A stretch of 64,000 nt of DNA, taken from the NCBI GenBank assembly GCA_030390025.1, contig CM059431.1, positions 106,394,001-106,458,000 of the forward strand, in the 5' to 3' direction. Below are positions 11,847 through 56,362 of this stretch, in pieces (positions within the stretch are counted from its first letter, which is position 1; each line of letters begins with the position of its first letter). This DNA is from Squalus acanthias. Lineage: Eukaryota. Made by a program: the position numbers and the translations under genes. The notes beneath the pieces are model-generated. The model was not told the DNA's origin and did not search any database. It saw nothing but the letters and a program-made list of their open reading frames with translations.

Positions 11847-11975
11847 AATCAAAACAGAAAATACTGGAAACGCTCAGCAGGTCAGGCAGCCTCTGTGGAG
11901 AGAGAAACAGAGCTAACGTTTCAGGTCGATGACCTTTCGTCAGAACTACTGCATCCGCAGTATTTTTGCTTTTGT
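11847..11975. mobile_element. Penelope family A pLTR remnant (one arm plus oppositely oriented tail)
   Basis: Matches 22119-22221 and 38767-38971. Confidence 0.8.
11911..11947 (-). ncRNA. Minimal hammerhead ribozyme motif (PLE family A)
   Basis: Reverse complement: AGUU CUGACGA A AGGUC auc GACCU GAAA CG UU AGCU. Confidence 0.65.
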
Positions 11976-17242: not shown

Positions 17243-17891
17243 GGGCCGTATATTCCGTAGGGACATCGGAAATGCCGGTTTCAGGCATGCCAAGCGCATG
17301 CGCTAAAAACCAGCATTTCAGATCGGACGCCTGCTCTGGAGAAGGGCCTCTGTGGGCGGATAGTTCCGCTTTCTGGAGACCCTCCGCCGGCAGAAAATCC
17401 TTATAAATCTTACGCCTGGTAAAAGCAGGCATAAGGCCTGCTTTTACCAGCATAAGATTTGAAAAAAAGTTAAAGAAAAAGGTTTAAAAAAAGGTAAGAT
17501 TATTTTTAGCCCCGTAAAAACCTTTAATTATAATTTTTTTTTAATTTGTTTAAAATATTTAATTTATTGTAATTTCAACTAATATTAAAAATGTGATTTA
17601 AAAAAAAAATGTATTTAATGTTTTACAGTGTTTTTTCATTGATCTCCATTCATATATTTGACAGGTCTATCTGTCAAGTGTATGAAGGGAGATTCCCTTC
17701 TTTGATTGGCTCCCTATGGCCCACGTGATCCCAGGGATGCTTGCGAACTGCCTGCGCCTCTGGGATACGTGGGCCCTGCGCATTTCGAGTTTGGAGAGGC
17801 CCAGGAGCGGAAGTGTCCGGACCTCGGGAGCCCTCAGTTAAGTTCGTAGATTTTTTCCAGACCAGAGGCCTCCGCACGGAAAATACGGCCC
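17243..17891. mobile_element. Non-autonomous DNA transposon with GGG-starting TIRs (PIF/Harbinger-like)
   Basis: TIR gggccgtatattccgt / acggaaaatacggccc; ata on both flanks; internal hairpin ctggtaaaagcaggc...gcctgcttttaccag. Confidence 0.75.
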
Positions 17892-20750: not shown

Positions 20751-20914
20751 TTGATTCTTGCGCAGGTACAAAATTCCATTTAGTGAGGGATAAAAACGGG
20801 TATATCTTGATCTTCAGGGAAGAATCTTTTTTTTCCCTCTCGTTATAGTGGCTGTCGGCCATTTTGTTGCCTTAGTGGTGAAACGCCAACCAACCATGAT
20901 GTACCTGTAATTAT

Positions 20915-21132
20915 GTGAGAAGTCGCACAACACCAGGTTATAGTCCAACAGGTTTATTTGAAATCACAAGCTTTCGGAGCGCTGCTCCTTCGTCAGGTGA
21001 AGTCACTTCACCTGACGAAGGAGCAGCGCTCCGAAAGCTTGTGATTTCAAATAAAACTGTTGGACTATAACCTGGTGTTGTGCGACTTCTCACATTTGTC
21101 CACCCCAGTCCAACACCGGCATCTCCGCATCA
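20915..21132. mobile_element. Penelope family B fold-back pLTR insertion (palindrome plus 37-nt tail)
   Basis: 91-bp arms 20913-21003 and 21005-21095 with one mismatch; 13-bp TSD tacctgtaattat (20902-20914, 21133-21145); homologous to the termini of the PLE at 53765-55263. Confidence 0.9.
21008..21044 (+). ncRNA. Minimal hammerhead ribozyme motif (PLE family B); mirror copy on the minus strand at 20964-21000
   Basis: UCAC CUGACGA A GGAGC agc GCUCC GAAA GC UU GUGA. Confidence 0.72.
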
Positions 21133-22118
21133 TACCTGTAATTATACTGCTTTCAGAATCTCAAACAGTTAATGAGCTGCGTAACTGGGCTCAATGTTGA
21201 AGATGTTGTTGATCCAGATGTGGAGTGCAGGACTGCGGAAAACTCAAACGCTTACGAATATCAAGACGCAATGCTGAGATATCCAGTTTATTGCCCTGTA
21301 ATGCAGCTCTTAGTAGATAGCATCAGAGACACTGTATGCAAACTTTTAAATGAATGAATAAATTTCCATAAATGGCAAATAATCTCCTTGTCTGCATATG
21401 GACATGACGATCAGATATGGAGATACATTTAAGTGTCTGTTGGGGAGATTTTCTTCGAAAGTAATTGCAACTTTCTTCAGTATATTTAAATAACAGTTTT
21501 TTTCTTTAATCCCCAAAACAATATTTTAAGCGTACCAACATTAAAGAGTGTTGTTAATATATCAGAGGTGAAACTGATAATATTTTACCAGTAATCTGCT
21601 ATATGTGTGTATAGCATGGCAGTCAATTCATTAATGCGCATGCAAAGTAGGTGATATTTTAAATATTACATAAATAACTAAATTCCAGTATTAAGATTAA
21701 CGTATTCATAACTGTAATTCTGAGAGTCAGCGAGGATTTAAAACAGAACAAATGGAACAATCAGGATTTAATAAAATAAGATTTGTAAAGTACTAACAGA
21801 CCTCCCGCCATACTGCTCATGTCGAGACTGGGATAGGTTAAAGAGTGACGCACCAGAAGTAAGTGCAATGTTTACATGAAATGGTAGCTATACAGATGAC
21901 TTTTAATATATTATAAATCTGGCATGCTGACAACATGAAGGTAACTAAAGATGTCTGTTCATATTCTTTGTTATTAGCACAAATAGAAGTATAGATTTTT
22001 GCTCATTCCCAAGGTTCAATTGTCTCCCCTGTTCTCCCCATTCTGGGACACAGTGATCATGTTCTGTGTTTATCAGATGAATGATCCTTGAAGAGGGGGT
22101 CAAAGAGGAAGTAATCTG

Positions 22119-23650
22119 GAGATAACAACAGAAAACGGTGGAAAAACTCAGCAGGCCAGGCAGCATCCATGGAGAGAGAAAGAGAGTTAACGTTTCAGGT
22201 CGATGACCTTTCATCAGAACTGGGAAGAGCCGGAAATCAAATAGATTTAAGGCCAGGGTAAAGCTGGGAAAAGGGGGAGGGGATAAAGGAACAAAGGGGG
22301 AGATGAAGAGACATTAAGAGACATTAAGAGATATGCAAGGCTAGAGGTGGTGTTAATGTGACAGATTAAGGCTGAATGAAGTGTGAAATCCACTGGCAGA
22401 ATGAAGGACAGCTGCCAGCTTCTAGGAGGAAAAAAAAAGGTGGGGGGGGGACAAATAAAAGGGTGGATAAAATAAAATATAAATGTGATTGGAGCTGATC
22501 TAAAATTGTTGAACTCGATATTGAGTCCAGAGGGCTGTAGCATGCCTAAACGAAAGATGAGGTGCTGTTCCTCGAGCTTACGCTGAGCTTCCGTGGAACA
22601 GTGTAATAGGTCGAGGACGGTGAGGTCAGAGTGGGAGTGAAGCGGTAAATTAAAGTGACAGGCCACCGGGAGCTCGGGGTCCCCCTTACGGACTGAACGG
22701 AGGTGTTCCGCAAAGCGGTCACCCAATCTGCGTTTGGTCTCCCCAATGTAGAGGAGTCCACATCGTGAGCAGCGAATACAGTATACTAAATTGCAGGAAG
22801 TACAAGTAAATCGCTGTTTCACCTGGAAGGGGTGTTTGGGGCCCTGGACAGTGGGAAGAGGGGAGGTATAAGGGCATGTGTTGCATCTCCTGCGCATGCA
22901 TGGGAAGGTACCGGGCGAAGGGGAAGGGGTGCTGGGGGTGGTAGAGGAGTGGACTAGGGTGTCGCGGAGGGAGCGGTCCCTACGGAATGCTGAAAGGGGA
23001 GGTGAGGGGAAGATGTGTTTGGTGGTGGGATCACGCTGGAGGTGGCGGAAATGGCGGAGGATGATCCGTTGAATGTGGAGGCTGGTGGGGTGAAAGGTGT
23101 GGACAAGGGGAACCCTATCGTGGTTCCGGGAGGGAGGGGCAGGGGTGAGGGCAGATGTGCGGGAGATAGAACGGACACGGTCGAGGGCCGTGTCGACCAC
23201 GGTAGAGGGGAATCCTCGGTTGAGGAAAAAGGAAGACATGTCGGAAGCACTGGTATGGAAGGTGGCATCATCAGAGCAGATGCAGCGGAGACGGAGAAAC
23301 TGGGAGAATGGAATAGAGTCCTTACAGGAGGCGGGGTGGGAGGAAGTGTAGTCCAGGTAGCTGTGGGAGTCGGTGGGCTTGTAGTGAATGTTAGTCAATA
23401 ACCTATCCCCAGAGATGGAGATGGAGAAGTCGAGGAAGGGAAGGGAAGAGTCGGAGATGGACCATGTGAAGGTGAGGGAAGGGTGGAAATTGGAAGCATA
23501 GTGAATGAAATGTTCTAGTTCAGGGCGAGAGCAGGAGACGGCACCGATACAGTCATCAATGTACCGGAAAAAGAGGTGAGGGAGGGGACCCGAGTAGGAC
23601 TGGAACAAAGAGTGTTCCACATATCCCACGAAAAGGCAGGCATAGCTAGG
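22119..23650 (-). mobile_element. Penelope-like retroelement family A, 5'-truncated: RT C-terminal half, GIY-YIG endonuclease and pLTR
   Basis: Within ORF 22247-24061: PSYACLFVG, RYIDD, LPFLD, HYKPTDSHSYLDYTSSHP, C-x3-R-C-x2-C linker, LVYCIRC...LYIGETKRRLGDRFAEH, PSGLN; pLTR at about 22119-22226. Confidence 0.95.
22185..22221 (-). ncRNA. Minimal hammerhead ribozyme motif (PLE family A)
   Basis: Reverse complement: AGUU CUGAUGA A AGGUC auc GACCU GAAA CG UU AACU. Confidence 0.72.
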
Positions 23651-28465: not shown

Positions 28466-29068
28466 AAAACGTGCTCAGAGCTCTGGTTACAATTATTGGA
28501 GAATCCCAGTTACATTTTAACCTTCACAAAAGAGGCAATGGGAAAGTCAGTGCTTTGTTAACACTGAGAAGGTGGAAAGCTCCCAGGCATCTGCCAGACC
28601 ACAAGGGAACCTTTAAAAGGTTGCTTTGTACCGGGTACAGTTCGACAGCAGCGAATTAGAAACTGACGCAGTGTATGACTATCTCCTTGAGGTGCTTTTT
28701 TGCACCACTTCAATCTAAATTCAACTTGGGTGACTTAGCGCCAGGATTTGTCATACATTTTCCATCAGTTTGAAGCCCAAACTGCGTAGTACCAGCGCAC
28801 AATGTGGCCTACGGATCTCTCGGAGGTAGATACTGAAAAACCGCCGGGAACCATAAAAATAAAATGGCTTCCACCACCTTAAAGAAAGAACTTGCAGTTA
28901 TTTAATTAACCTCTGAACCCTGAAGTTCATCCTGATATTTTACACAATTGCTTTGGCATTTTAATATTGTTTTCCTCTATCGACAAACAATATAAGAAAC
29001 CGAATCACAGATTTTATGATGTAAGACATCCCAGATAAGTGATGGACATGCATTGGCAGGATATTGTT

Positions 29069-29185
29069 TCAGTTCTGATGGATGGTCCTTCCTGAAACAT
29101 TAACCGATCTTTCTCTTTCAGATGCTGACAAACCTGCTGGCATTTGCAGCAATTTCACTTTTTACTTCAGATTTCCAATGTTTCA
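29069..29185 (+). mobile_element. Old degenerate Penelope family A pLTR with a decayed hammerhead
   Basis: cagttctgatgga...cctgaaacattaac...gatgctgac...cctgctg...tcagatttcca. Confidence 0.55.
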
Positions 29186-37985: not shown

Positions 37986-38766
37986 TTTTACTCCCGGCTT
38001 TGCTCGCAGCTGTGTCTTGGAGATTAATCTTTAATTCCTGGAGACTCCTGGGCAATCTTGGAGGGTTGGCAACCCTAGTCTAACGGCTCGTGGTTGGGCC
38101 TCATCTAAATACTTTGGACGAGCTGTGTGTACTTGAAAGCCTTACCTTTGGTTATGTCTTTTAGTTGTCCAGCCTATCTCCACATATCTATTGTAAGTTA
38201 AGTCAAACTCTTCCTAAGCACTGAATACGGTAGCCAAATACCACTCTAGAAGTTATATGTAGAACAAACCAGGCTGGAGATCCAGTTCCCATTACCTACT
38301 TTCCAATTCATTTTGCACTCCGCACAATAGATGAATAATGTGATGGGGCTTTGTATTTTATGAAAAATCCCAATGCATTGTAAACAACTGCTGTTACTAA
38401 TAAAAAGCCATGCTACTGATCTACAGAACACCACCAAGCAAGCTCAAAGGATTTAATGAAATAGCTGTGCTATAATTTAGAAGACTGACTAAAAATTGGC
38501 TAAACTCAAGCTGCTTACTTCCACTACACTATGCTAGAATTTACACTGCCCAGTGATAAGCAATATGATCTAACCTTTCTAAATGTCACTTCATTGAATC
38601 TGATGTCGTGCCTTGATATGACAGATTTCTTTGCGCATTTTAATTATTTTAATGTCATAATATTGAACATTAATCAAATAATAATGAAAATATCAAGACA
38701 TTATATAATTATAGGAGGCTACACACCACTGCCAGAAGATCTGCTTGTTGCCAAACTGGTGCTGTA

Positions 38767-38971
38767 ATGGAATAGCAAAATACTGCGGATGCTGGAAATC
38801 CGAAATAACAACAGAAAACGCTGGAAAAACTCAGCAGGCCAGGCAGCATCTGTGGAGAGAGAAACAGAGTTAACGTTTCAGGTCGAAGACGAAAGGTCTT
38901 CGACCTGAAACGCTAACTCTGTTTCTCTCTCCACGGATGCTGCCTGGCCTGCTGAGTTTTTCCAGTGTTTT
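38767..38971. mobile_element. Penelope family A fold-back pLTR insertion (tail plus palindrome)
   Basis: 79-bp arms 38812-38890 and 38896-38974; 11-bp TSD ctggtgctgta (38756-38766, 38972-38982); matches the pLTR at 22119-22221. Confidence 0.88.
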
Positions 38972-39164
38972 CTGGTGCTGTACTGGACTGTTCTGAGGTA
39001 CAGACTGAAGCTCACAGAGCGTAGAGTAAAGAGCTTTACTCAGACTGTGGCATATTCCCTGACTAGGGAGGGTGGGTGGTGTAAATCAATAGGCCTCCAT
39101 TGTGCCAGGTATATACAGGGTGCTCTGGATTTCACTGGAACTCAGAACACCACTGTTCATGTGC

Positions 39165-46409: not shown

Positions 46410-47680
46410 GATACTAAGTTAGGCAGCAGAGTAAGCTGTGTAAATGGGAGAAGGAAGTTACAAAGGGACATTGAGATTAAGTGAGTGGGCAAAACTATGG
46501 CAGATGGAGTTCAGTGTGGGTAAATGCGAGGCCATCCAGTTTGGACCTTAAAAAAAAGGACAATTTGGAATTTGGGTACAAAAAGCAATCAAAATGGCTA
46601 ATAATGACATGTTGGCCTTTATCTTTTTTTTTATTTGTTTATGGGATGTGGGCATCACTAGCAAGGCCAGCATTTATTGCCCATCCCTAACTGCCCTTGA
46701 GAAGGTGGTGGTGAACCGCCTTCTCGAACCACTGCAGTCTGTGTGGTGAAGGTACTCCCACAGTGCCGTTAGGGAGGGAGTTCCAGGATTTTGACCCAGC
46801 GACGATGAAGGAACAGCGATATACTTCTAAGTCAGGATGGTGTGTGACTTGGAGGTGGTGGTGTTCCCATGCGCCTGCTGCCCTTGTCCTTCTAGGTGGA
46901 AGAGGTCGCAGGTTTGGGAGGTGCTGCTGGAGAAGCCTTGGCGAGTTGCTGCAGTGCATCTTGCAGCCACGGTGCGCTTGTGGTGGATGGGGTGCCAATC
47001 AAGCAGGCTGCTTTGTCCTGAATGGTGTCGAGCTTCTTGAGTGTTGTTGGAGCTGCACTCATCCAGGCAAGTGGAGAGTATTCCATCACACTCCTTACTT
47101 GTGCTTTGTAGATGGTAGAAAGGCTTTGGGGAGTCAGGAGGTGAGACACTCGCCGCAGAATACTCAGCCTCTGACCTGGCTGGTCCAGTTAAATTTCTGG
47201 TCAATGGCGACCCCCAGGATGTTGATGGTGGGCGATCTCAAGTGGGCTGGAGTACAGGGGAGGAAGTTATGCTCCAGTTGTACAGAGCTTTGGTCAGACC
47301 TCATCTGGACTACTGCATTCGGTTTTGGGCACTGCAGCTCAGGAAAGATATATTCCCTCGAGTTTAAAAGTTTGAGGGGTGATCTAAGCAAGGTGTTTAA
47401 AATGATCAAGAGTTTTGATAGGGTAGCTGGAAATTGCCTCTGGGGTGGGAATCCAGAACAAGGGGGCATAGTCTTAAAATTAGAGCTAGTCCAGTTAAAT
47501 TAGGAAGCACTTTTTCACACAAAGTGTAGTCAAAATAATGTTCAACACTGCGATCGATAGATATTATTTAGGTAAGGTATCAAGGGATTTGGAGAAAAGG
47601 CAGGTAAATAGAGTTGAGGTGCTGATCAACCATGACCTAGCAGAATGGTGGAACAGGCTCGAGGGGCTGAATGGCCTATA
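46410..47680 (+). mobile_element. Degenerate CR1 fragment, interrupted at 46625-47235
   Basis: tggcagatggagttc (WQMEF), ttggtcagacctcatctggactactg (LVRPHLDYC) and a CR1 3' UTR. Confidence 0.8.
46625..47235 (-). mobile_element. CR1-group LINE 3' fragment (family of 634-1135)
   Basis: SLSTIYKAQVRSVMEYSPLAWMSAAPTTLKKLDTIQDKAACLIG; INILGVAIDQKFNWT. Confidence 0.85.
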
Positions 47681-50112: not shown

Positions 50113-50361
50113 AAATAAAAATAAGAAAGGGAAGAGGGATCACTGTAATCCCTTTGGGTGGATTTGACTCTAAACCAAATAGTAGCTTGGCTCGAAGGAT
50201 CATATTTAGCTGAGTTAGAGCAAATTCAAGAATCTTTTGTCTTTGTCTCTTAAAGCCTGTGAAGATTTCAGTTGGAAGCCTGTATTGGCTTCATTCCTCT
50301 GTCTGGCCACCTCGGAGCACATCGCAACTTTACCAAGAGCATCTCTGCCCTCCTACCTGAG

Positions 50362-50557
50362 TGAGAAGTCGCACAACACCAGGTTATAGTCCAACAGCTT
50401 TATTTGAAATCACAAGCTTTCGGAGCGCTGCACCTGACGAAGGAGCAGCTATCCGAAAGCTTGTGATTTCAAATAAAGCTGTTGGACTATAACCTGGTGT
50501 TATGCGACTTCTCACTTTTGTCCACCCCAGTCCAACACCGGCATCTCCGCATCATGG
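50362..50557. mobile_element. Penelope family B fold-back pLTR insertion with a shortened centre
   Basis: 12-bp TSD ctcctacctgag (50350-50361, 50558-50569); arms and tail nearly identical to 20915-21132; plus-strand hammerhead motif at 50431-50465. Confidence 0.88.
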
Positions 50558-50689
50558 CTCCTACCTGAGAGAATGCTTAAAGGGGGGCAGTCATAAACGT
50601 ACAGAAAAAAGTTAAACCACAAGGAAATAGTGGGCTGAAATATCCTTAAAATAAAGCTCCATTTATTTCTGGAAGCTGATTCCATAAAT

Positions 50690-53100: not shown

Positions 53101-53764
53101 CCTTGGCAGAACAAAGTTAGAGATACTAGTTGCCTCGTTAGGCACAGCACTGAGTCAAAGTTGGGTCTGTGGGATGGGACCGAACAGTACTGTCACATAA
53201 TGCCTTCTAATGGTCAAACCAAGAGCAGTGAATCTGGGCAAACCATCCAGGACCTCCTGATTAGGGAGGATTACCTGAGTGCATAGAGCACAGTTGAAAG
53301 GAAAGTGGAAAACTGCAATCTGCTTGTCTATCAATACCAACCATATGGAGCCAATAACGTGATAAACAGCCGAACCTCACATACTTGAAATAAGGAATTT
53401 ATTCCATGTCGATAACAACTCCACAATTAAAATAATTCAAAAACATACTCCTGCTTAGTACTGGTAAGCTATAACTGTAACCATGGTAACACATGCCTTT
53501 CTTTCTTGCTAGTTTTCAGCCGCCCCCCCCCCTTGAAGGCACTAACTTCTTGTAGTGAAATGCTTCTGTGGAGCCGTCATTGTTCCATACCTTACTCAAA
53601 TCGCCATTCTTTGACTTTGAGCATCGGTAGGCTATTTGACGTTCTATAGCCTCCTAAGAATCATTCTCTTCAACAGTGACTTCATGCTCACTCTCCCCCC
53701 GCAAAAAAATTCTCTTTTCTCCTGCCCAGGGCTCAAATTGTATCCGCCTGCCATGTTAAATGCT

Positions 53765-55263
53765 GTGGAGATGCCGGCGTTGGACTGGGGTGGACAAAAA
53801 TGAGAAGTCGCACAACACCAGGTTATAGTCCAACAGATTTATTTAATTTTACAAGCTTTCGAAGCAGTTTGCTCCTTCGTCAGGTAAGTTAGCAATGAGA
53901 GAATCTCCCAGAATTCACAATTTAAACCCAGACAAAATCTATTCACATTATTCCCTACAACAAAGAGCACAGCCAAGACAATGAGATGTGTCCCAGGGGG
54001 TCCAACGTGTCAAACCACCTGCTGGCTGCATATCCTGTCAATTTGTGTTCTTGTGTTAAGTCTTTTTAAAAAAAAAACCCCTGGGAAGACCGGCCATGAT
54101 GTCAAGTCACGTTCTGTATCGTGACATGAACCCGATATCGCGATTGAGGCCATCCTCATGAGTGCGGAACTTGGCTATCAGTTTCTGCTCTATGATTTTG
54201 CGCTGTCGTGTATCTCGAAGGCCGCCTTGGAGAACGCTTACCCGCAGATCCGAGGCTGAATGCCCCTGGCTGCTGAAGTGTTCCCCGACTGGGAGGCAAC
54301 CCTCCTGCCTGGCGATTGTTGCGCGGTGTCCGTTCATACGTTGTCTCAGTGTCTGCATGGTCTCGCCGATGTACCATGCTCTGGAGCATCCTTTACTGCA
54401 ACGTATCAGGTAGACAACGTTGGCCGAGTCACATGACTATGTACCGTGTACCTGGTGGGTAGTGTCCTCACGTGTAATGATGGTATCTGTGTCCATGATT
54501 TGGCATGTCTTGCAGAGGTTGCCGTGGCAGGGTTGTGTGGTGTCTTGGTTGCTGTTCTCCTGAAAGATGGGTAATCTGCTGCGAACGATGGTACTTTTGA
54601 GGTTAGGCGGCTGCTTGAAGGCGAGTAGTGGAGGCGTGGGGATGGCCTTAGCAAGGTGTTCGTCGTCATCGATGACATGTTGAAGGCTGCGAAGAACATG
54701 GCGTAGTTTTTCCGCTCCGGGGAAGTACTGGACGACGTAGGGTACTCTGTTGGTTGTGTCCCGTGTTCGTCTTCTGAGGAGGTCTATGCGGTTTTTCGCT
54801 GTGGCCCGTCGGAACTGTCGATCGACGAGTCGAGCGTCATATCCCGTTCTTACGAGGGCGTCTTTCAGTGTCCGTAGGTGTCCATCGCGTTCCTCCTCGT
54901 CTGAGCAGATCCTGTGTATTCGCAGGGCTTGTCCATAGGGGATGGCTTCTTTAACGTGGTTAGGGTGGAAGCTGGAGAAGTGGAGCATCGTGAGGTTGTC
55001 CGTGGGCTTGCGGTAGAGTGAAGTGCTGAGGCGTCCGTCTTTGATGGAGATTCGTGTGTCCAAGAATGAAACCGATTCTGAGGAGTAGTCCATGGTGAGT
55101 TTGATGGTGGGATGGAACCCAGATTTTGTCTGGGTTTAAATTGTGAATTCTGGGAGATTCTCTCATTGCTAACTTACCTGACGAAGGAGCAAACTGCTTC
55201 GAAAGCTTGTAAAATTAAATAAATCTGTTGGACTATAACCTGGTGTTGTGCGACTTCTCATTT
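53765..55263 (-). mobile_element. Penelope-like retroelement family B, 5'-truncated, with an inverted pLTR
   Basis: ORFs 54437-55093 (FLD, LYRKPTD, SSFHP, C-x4-C-x2-C) and 54107-54358 are in the same frame across one TAG and give VVYLIRC...WYIGETMQTLRQRMNGH (GIY-YIG). Identical 143-bp inverted repeats 53798-53940 and 55121-55263; 12-bp TSD atgttaaatgct. Confidence 0.95.
55174..55212 (+). ncRNA. Minimal hammerhead ribozyme motif (PLE family B); mirror copy on the minus strand at 53849-53887
   Basis: UUAC CUGACGA A GGAGCA aac UGCUUC GAAA GC UU GUAA. Confidence 0.72.
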
Positions 55264-56362
55264 ATGTTAAATGCTCTAAGATGTTTTTCTTTACGAGGAG
55301 CAGTGTTGCTCAGGGCTGGTAGAAGATAAGAGACCAAATTGCCCTCTACGTCACAAATCATTTAACCTGCCAAAATTGCTTATTAATACAATTTCTGTTA
55401 TTTAACAAACCAAAAAGGCTCCCACTACTCCCCCTACCCTGGTGTAATAGAACAAAATGGATCAGATCACAGTTTGCTTGCGATCACAATTTCATCTCGT
55501 CCCAGCAATTTGATCTGATTACTTGTTCACAACACTGCACACAAAATGCTGTATTTCATTCTTCCTTTTAGTGTTCAACAAACAGAAAAAGCCCTCATTC
55601 TTAAAAAAAAATCCTCAGGAGAATAAATCAGCAGAAATTGCTGATAATGTACCAGTGTGTGCAAACTGGAGACTGCGTGAGTCAGTTTATCTGTGACAGG
55701 CAATGGAATACAAGTGTGTCTGCAGATGTTGTAAAGGGGTGGGCACTGCAGTATTTAGTCTGCAGCAGGAGAAAGGAATATTTGGCTTGCTGGTGTGTGG
55801 AATACACGCCATTCTATGTGACAAGTGACGCAAACCTGTGAGAGGATCACTTCATGAAATGATAGTAAAACAGTTCCTGAAATCACCGGTCAGTACTAGC
55901 ACAGTAAATAAATCATGAACATTTCAGTCATGAACAGATTCTAGAACTAAATTATATTGCTGAGCCCACGCTGCATTCCATTTTATTAAATCGCTGTGTA
56001 TCTGCAATAACCTAATGTACAAATGACATTTTACAAGGTCTGAGCAACCTCAGTAGAATACTCATCCATCCACTTATCTCCTTCAGTGCCAGGCTGCTAT
56101 TGTATTAGCCGAGTTAAAAATCCCTGAGTGCCACCCATATAAAAGTATTTAATTCGAATATTCTGTTCAATGCTGTTCAAAGAATCAGCAACTAATTCTG
56201 AGACTGACAGATTATAACTGTCTATTAGGTCCTTTGCAAATAGGTCTTAGTGTCATCTCGGTACACCAATCCGCTGTGAGATTCCCTCAAGAACAGAACA
56301 TGAACTGGCTGAATTGTCCACTTTTCTATATGGTTGATGAGTAAAAGCGTACCATGGCAATC

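Follow-up and report, generated by a model that had tools for sequence, protein, structure and literature searches.

Positions 20902-21145 of the window, by which we mean the whole 64-kb stretch of Squalus acanthias DNA that was analysed, hold a short palindromic insertion from which any ORF is absent. Its inverted arms, 20913-21003 and 21005-21095, pair along 91 bp around a single unpaired centre, C21004, the only mismatch being 20952/21056. It is bounded on both sides by an exact 13-mer, the target-site duplication (TSD), whose two copies (20902-20914 and 21133-21145) are the only ones in the 64 kb. The first 2 nt of the left arm fall within this duplication, and the inserted part of that arm is 89 nt. 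Together with a 37-nt tail, these features bear out the fold-back structure that an earlier note had described for this DNA. Judged from its sequence, the insert is the 128-nt 5' leader of a Penelope-like element (PLE) present twice, head to head, with the inverted copy lacking the tail. Its parts are as follows.

20902-20914, no strand: left TSD, 13 bp; its final 2 nt are at the same time the paired end of the tail-less arm
20913-21003, minus strand: the PLE 5' leader in inverted orientation and without the tail, reaching from ~+91, the inner RT start site, to the predicted +1
21004, no strand: C at the centre, unpaired, which may be native (position -1 of the initiator) or have arisen by copying of the RNA cap, the two being indistinguishable
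21003-21009, plus strand: perfect initiator motif YYANWYY (TCACTTC), with A21005 as the predicted +1
21005-21132, plus strand: copy with the tail, a 128-nt leader that begins at the predicted +1 and ends on the first base (A) of the ORF start codon
21008-21044, plus strand: minimal type I hammerhead motif, with a mirror copy at 21000-20964 on the minus strand
21096-21132, plus strand: 37-nt PLE tail between two RT start sites, the 3' strand of a stem closing an AC-rich loop
21133-21145, no strand: right TSD, whose first T coincides with that of the ATG in the parent

Authenticity, family and surroundings of the insertion

Contigs from four of the 24 listed runs were placed on 20752-21420, namely X1 and X5 (organism A), X7 (organism C) and X10 (organism E). 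The earlier note had advised looking for empty sites in related sharks, and such a site is found in organism C, where the 404-nt contig 25 of X7 covers 20752-20896 and then resumes directly at 21136, keeping a single copy of 10 of the 13 TSD letters, with 8 further flanking nt missing. The 8 nt absent from organism C (20897-20904, including the first 3 nt of the TSD) may reflect a later deletion in C or a gain in A. Contig 1 of X1 runs from the left flank through the TSD and 23 nt into the arm, a short overlap below the 31-letter bridging threshold, in a run that may be the window's own source. Among the listed contigs of the four runs, none covers the right junction or spans the whole insert, which would suit a chimeric fold-back created during assembly; such an artefact is extremely improbable because the TSD is exact and the tail lies on one side only, and the single arm mismatch, the empty site in organism C and the similar junctions in four independent runs likewise argue against it. 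The insertion is real, of Penelope type, and located at a site that is empty in a related species.

Arm and tail share 87.8% identity over 131 nt with the end of the element at 53765-55263, so that the proposed homology to the terminal repeat of this element holds, but 12 differences in 75 columns point to a sister subfamily rather than the same one. The ORF of that element is 91-92% identical to shark RT proteins carrying PF00078 and ends in a GIY-YIG-type motif (VVY...YIG) that was read directly; a Pfam scan of its two ORF fragments returned 0 families, and PF01541 is recorded for 1 of 25 relatives. Including its duplications, this 1.5-kb element (53753-55275) follows the same plan as the mini-insertion, with a TSD, a one-ended tail and a tail-less inverted arm. 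The suggestion of four mini-insertions from two families stands for three clean, TSD-bounded fold-backs (20902, 50350 and 38756) but not for the fourth (~11847-11975), for which no TSD was found and the best exact repeat is 6 nt. Across the four runs, 4,609-33,571 contigs per run were placed on the insert's family. The related copies in the window are listed below.

50350-50569, plus strand: second copy of the insert's own family, with a 12-bp TSD, an asymmetric junction (+5 / +19) and a tail that passes through the ATG
53753-55275, minus strand: sister-subfamily 5'-truncated RT/EN element with a 12-bp TSD, a 147-bp inverted tail-less arm reaching past +1, and the tail at the other end
38756-38982, minus strand: family-2 fold-back mini-insertion with an 11-bp TSD and a junction at +7 / +15 with 3-nt microhomology
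11847-11975, minus strand: family-2 remnant whose tail-less arm ends exactly at the family's predicted +1, followed by a short tail piece
22110-23650, minus strand: family-2 5'-truncated RT/EN element, the source of the family-2 promoter region

No clear TSD was found for the element at 22110-23650, where the best exact repeat is 7 nt; its protein is ~30% identical to that of the first PLE family, and a long CT-rich tract precedes it. At 29060-29180 lies an old family-2 pLTR remnant (74% identity) in which the hammerhead core has decayed, a perfect initiator precedes this core by 4 nt, and position -30 shows no TATA-like box. By its homologous pLTR, inverted 5'-truncated copy, 37-nt one-ended tail, TSD with empty site and hammerhead motif, the insert is assigned on sequence to the EN+ Penelope-like insertions, a Penelope/Poseidon clade name being based on domain order and structure.

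Each strand carries one ribozyme motif, as previously proposed, the minimal hammerhead core lying at 21012 on the plus and 20996 on the minus strand, with stem I TCAC/GTGA, CTGACGA, a 5-bp stem II, GAAA and a palindromic AGCT, and with a predicted cut after 21040. The sister family shows a compensatory change of stem I to TTAC/GTAA, and a third family keeps the core with stems of its own. Rfam returned no hammerhead among 7 hits at E<=1, all of them generic hairpins below the gathering score and none at the locus. The RNA hairpin is predicted at -175.1 kcal/mol (z -25; 0 of 200 shuffles as stable), and a transcript through the insert would contain one same-sense hammerhead within the duplex, which agrees in silico with the suggested masking of the ribozyme in read-through RNA. 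A minimal hammerhead works only weakly in vitro and depends on a second same-sense copy, according to the available text of PMC4209133. A reading of the insert as a ribozyme-bearing mobile hairpin or regulatory RNA finds no support.

Regarding the surroundings, an acceptor-like site occurs 11 nt after the right TSD and is followed by a 66-codon open frame without homologs (21146-21357), which is probably not an exon; as a candidate terminal exon, 21157-21357 gave no PDB match under E 1, and 0 of 5 candidates reached significance; of the 7 differences in the organism-C contig 5 are listed, and 4 of these are non-synonymous. By eye, no host gene was recognised among the 24 ORFs of at least 130 aa in the 64-kb window. 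A motif scan of metagenome contigs gave 0 matches, and none of 94 pattern matches from a protein scan was confirmed. Two further inverted structures are of other kinds. A 404-bp fold-back of 86% at 726-1129 (within 600-1140) belongs to a different repeat, its right arm matching 46624-46814; we take this repeat to resemble the 3' end of a LINE that is accompanied by an inverted copy and, upstream, by another piece in sense orientation, and neither a tail nor a hammerhead was seen in it. At 17405-17460 there is a short imperfect hairpin unrelated to Penelope ends.

Junctions, predicted transcription start and RT start sites

Contigs running past 21003 (41, 24, 43 and 100 in the four runs) supply the upstream sequence of the parent, in which T21003 and C21004 are native; the centre therefore reads TCACTTC, a 7/7 match to the initiator consensus YYANWYY. 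At -30 of the parent, TATATAT appears in two of the five loose-end rows at 21003/21004 (X1 and X10, two organisms), the other three being merely AT-rich or free of a TATA-like stretch, and this loose-end consensus is thin (few contigs, median loose length 14-16 nt, agreement 0.65-0.67). The insert itself is without this box. The frequency of window positions with both a TATA-like stretch at -30 and an initiator is 3.9e-5. In family 2 a perfect initiator precedes the hammerhead core by 4 nt, a TATA-like 7-mer with 2 mismatches stands at -30, and the arm at 11847-11947 ends precisely on the initiator A, the predicted +1 (n=1, in the copy without a TSD). For the sister family, at a position picked after the fact, the initiator matches in 6 of 7 letters and TTTAAAT stands at -30. 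None of the 4 mini-insertions has an arm passing +1, and in the insert's own family and family 2 alike, +1 and the 5' edge of hammerhead stem I are 0-3 nt apart. Published promoters of the group vary: that of Drosophila virilis Penelope is described as internal and TATA-less in the available part of PMC2377424, and in that of PMC3846280 TCACT of a rotifer pLTR is termed Inr-like and TATA/Inr-like motifs are placed in the pLTR. The mirror point quite probably falls on a transcription start, predicted from these motifs at A21005. C21004 at the centre could be native, the -1 base of the parent, or could stem from the RNA cap, which full-length L1 cDNAs are reported to copy as an extra G (PMC11702581, available part).

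The closeness of +1 to stem I also lends itself to another explanation, namely severe 5' truncation of cDNA begun in the 3' pLTR of a long RNA, with the hotspot marking an RT stop at the hammerhead fold; most junctions are spread through +2 to +94, and many copies continue past +1, as truncation would predict. It is nonetheless decidedly unlikely, given that the centre coincides exactly with a perfect initiator, that a TATA-like box stands at -30, that two other families show this spacing as well, that RT would presumably meet the 3' strand of stem I first, and that depth passes the predicted cleavage site without a step (3.39M at 21040 against 3.48M at 21043 in X1). Hammerhead cleavage as the source of truncation was rejected on the same absence of a step, despite 2 of the 15 detailed joints (of 230) beginning at +37.

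Across the contigs of the four runs, 230 distinct arm junctions are listed. Among the 15 of these that are detailed, 13 are asymmetric by more than 2 nt (up to 91 nt); one arm ends at +2 to +8 in 5 of the 15, and neither arm lies within +8 in the other 10. Two near-centre variants with one arm ending at +1/+2 reach summed depths of 24,595 and 5,365 in X1, where the single-copy flank stands at 15.3; contig depth does not equal copy number, and these depths belong to the near-centre variants, not to the exact junction of the 20902 copy. The detailed distant joints have depths of 87-265 in X1 and at most 898 in any run; the +1/+2 variants are ~100-fold deeper than the other listed junctions of X1. 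Near-centre variants occur in all four runs and in three organisms, including one in which this locus is empty, and diverged contigs again show the exact centre (X5 record 17, with 9 differences, bridging; X7 record 26, with 28 letters on one side). Tail-to-arm depth ratios are inconsistent between runs. The junctions form a hotspot at +1/+2 upon a scattered background.

Within the window, the 50350 copy of the same family joins +5 to +19, as against +1 to +1 at 20902, and these two copies each have variants of their own, at some sites present in both arms (n=2). The single arm mismatch falls at a site where the window copies show all four bases; depths obtained by subtraction suggest that both mismatch alleles are common in organism A, which hints at two template RNAs.

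These data bear on the proposal that the insert is a self-propagating non-autonomous mini-element, in which read-through transcripts of a few master hairpins would be copied in full. A small number of near-centre junctions are indeed very deep and common to the runs, the exact centre is found in the diverged X5 and X7 contigs, and non-autonomous PLEs exist. The proposal is still distinctly improbable: there are 230 listed joints besides the near-centre variants, the two same-family window copies differ, the -30 box is absent from the insert, a 90-bp duplex takes up the stem-loop of the RT start sites, long elements share the start of the tail-less arm, and hotspot variants occur in three organisms, one with this locus empty. 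The fixed internal structure across copies that would characterise a retro-MITE is not seen, the window copies being different from each other, although a +1/+2 hotspot is present, and a replicating mini-family is unlikely. A plot of fold-back centres, which had been put forward as a way to tell a replicating subfamily from independent events, is not decisive because run-off cDNAs at a fixed transcription start would also give a fixed centre, and the joints do show such a hotspot. Of the two origins considered in the earlier note, the self-propagating retro-MITE is not supported, in view of the differing junctions and of tail-less arms starting at the same site in the mini-insertions and the long element, while a frequent by-product of PLE integration is supported by the differences in junction between copies.

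The other ends of the arms coincide with a second landmark. The tail translates to VQHRHLRI, matching VHHRHLHI immediately before M72 of the protein P0026, and this M72 aligns with Met1 in all three other relatives; the tail ends at the ORF start codon, through which the 50350 copy continues. Loose 3' ends with heterogeneous flanks cluster at 21133 (143, 127, 46 and 257 contigs in the four runs), and a second cluster lies at 21097 (70, 40 and 21 contigs in three of the four). The tail-less arms of all three related window copies, mini-insertions and long element alike, end within a few nt of one site. In an anole element, the protein cuts and extends both strands in vitro, and the tail is the interval between two RT starts (PMC11167929, available part). 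The arm end and tail at 21086-21108 also resemble a branch point, pyrimidine tract and CAG acceptor; a 5' leader intron is present in D. virilis Penelope, according to the accessible text of PMC2377424.

Proposed origin and comparison with known systems

We propose, with a probability of roughly one half and from a predicted start site, that two cDNAs primed at both nicks from two known start sites ran off the RNA 5' end and were joined. An endonuclease-bearing Penelope-like protein, acting as a dimer, would nick both target strands 13 nt apart, giving rise to the TSD, and RT would be primed from both nicks, at an outer start site at the ORF's ATG to yield the arm with the tail and at an inner site ~37 nt upstream of it to yield the arm without. 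These start sites would lie ~90-130 nt below the pLTR transcription start, the 5' copy on promoter-initiated RNA being the one used, and both cDNAs would run off the RNA 5' end in the manner of retroviral strong-stop DNA, itself a cDNA that runs off at an RNA 5' end. End joining would then fuse them head to head, intact at 20902 and trimmed at 1-3 nt microhomologies in other copies. A21005 as the true start, the two priming events and the origin of the centre C are the inferred steps of this proposal. Priming of both strands at two RT start sites accounts for one arm lacking the tail, which copy-back alone does not explain.

The main alternative is a de novo snap-back, in which one cDNA at or near the RNA 5' end folds and is copied back, or self-primes on an antisense template, as an abortive event. 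Snap-back and antisense self-priming are put forward in the available text of PMC3846280, the deepest variant can be drawn as a 2-bp self-anneal with a 2-nt loop, and arms are near-identical within copies (1 difference in the insert and 0 in the long element over 75 columns). On the other hand, a further reason would have to be found why each copy stops at, or starts from, the inner site, which lies 37 nt inside the end; no hairpin primer can have a loop of 1 nt; a strong asymmetry, of up to 91 nt, marks many junctions; and the arm mismatch may be a family allele. This alternative is unlikely. The insertion very probably arose de novo, and twin priming rather than snap-back may be credited with both arms at moderate confidence.

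Comparison with described systems, for which the available parts of the papers are meant throughout, separates what is known from what is added. The typical EN+ PLE insertion consists of an inverted 5'-truncated copy with a 30-40 bp tail (PMC8557442), and palindromes occur at the inverted junction in PLEs (PMC3846280); an inverted copy with tail and TSD is a textbook Penelope insertion, long known. The insert shares with the EN+ PLEs of both papers the 5'-end inverted copy, one-end tail, 9-13 bp TSD and pLTR hammerhead, as well as the palindrome at the inverted junction and a TATA/Inr-like pLTR motif, but it contains no ORF at all and both its arms stop at the predicted +1. In these two sources, solo pLTRs are without a TSD, and the junction is not tied to a transcription start. 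New here, as read from the sequence, would be the coincidence of the arm ends with the predicted +1 and the ORF start codon. A search of listings in the open literature and of the papers cited here found no published link between inverted junction, transcription start and run-off cDNA.

The Poseidon element of Anolis carolinensis (PAc, PMC11167929) is similar in its two RT starts bounding a tail in an AC-rich stem-loop, in the extension of both strands, in the hammerhead located upstream and in the use of uncleaved RNA. It differs in that the hammerhead contains the start of its ORF and RT begins 111-118 nt downstream of that start, whereas the outer start of the insert is at the ATG; inverted inserts are not discussed in the available text. 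LINE-1 twin priming (PMC11702581) is likewise comparable, both target ends priming RT, microhomology serving end joining and the cap being copied, but its second priming event takes place internally, on another segment lying upstream, and the outcome is an inversion with no duplication, whereas in the insert both cDNAs would copy the same segment and yield a palindrome. Non-LTR retrozymes (bioRxiv 10.64898/2026.07.22.740005) are also short, non-coding and pLTR-derived, with a type I hammerhead and a report from one chondrichthyan; they form head-to-tail tandems with at least two same-sense ribozymes, an arrangement by which they are defined and which the insert does not have, being head-to-head with one motif per strand.

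Implications for Penelope-like elements of sharks

More broadly, and tentatively, many shark Penelope insertions might consist of two run-off cDNAs copied from the capped 5' leader by a dimer that primes on both strands, sometimes with two RNAs as templates. The available text of PMC8557442 states that the origin of inverted pLTR structures in PLEs is unresolved, and antisense-template self-priming has been proposed for rotifer elements (PMC3846280, available part). If the proposal is true, head-to-head pLTR palindromes need no antisense template and the centre base records the cap, and the same step could provide full-length copies with their upstream and inverted pLTRs. If mirror points map to the transcription start, the two-strand, two-start chemistry described in vitro in the available part of PMC11167929 suffices as an explanation. 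PLE transcription starts would then be readable from junction maps, that is, from DNA alone, and shark genomes would hold thousands of natural products for testing the mechanism.
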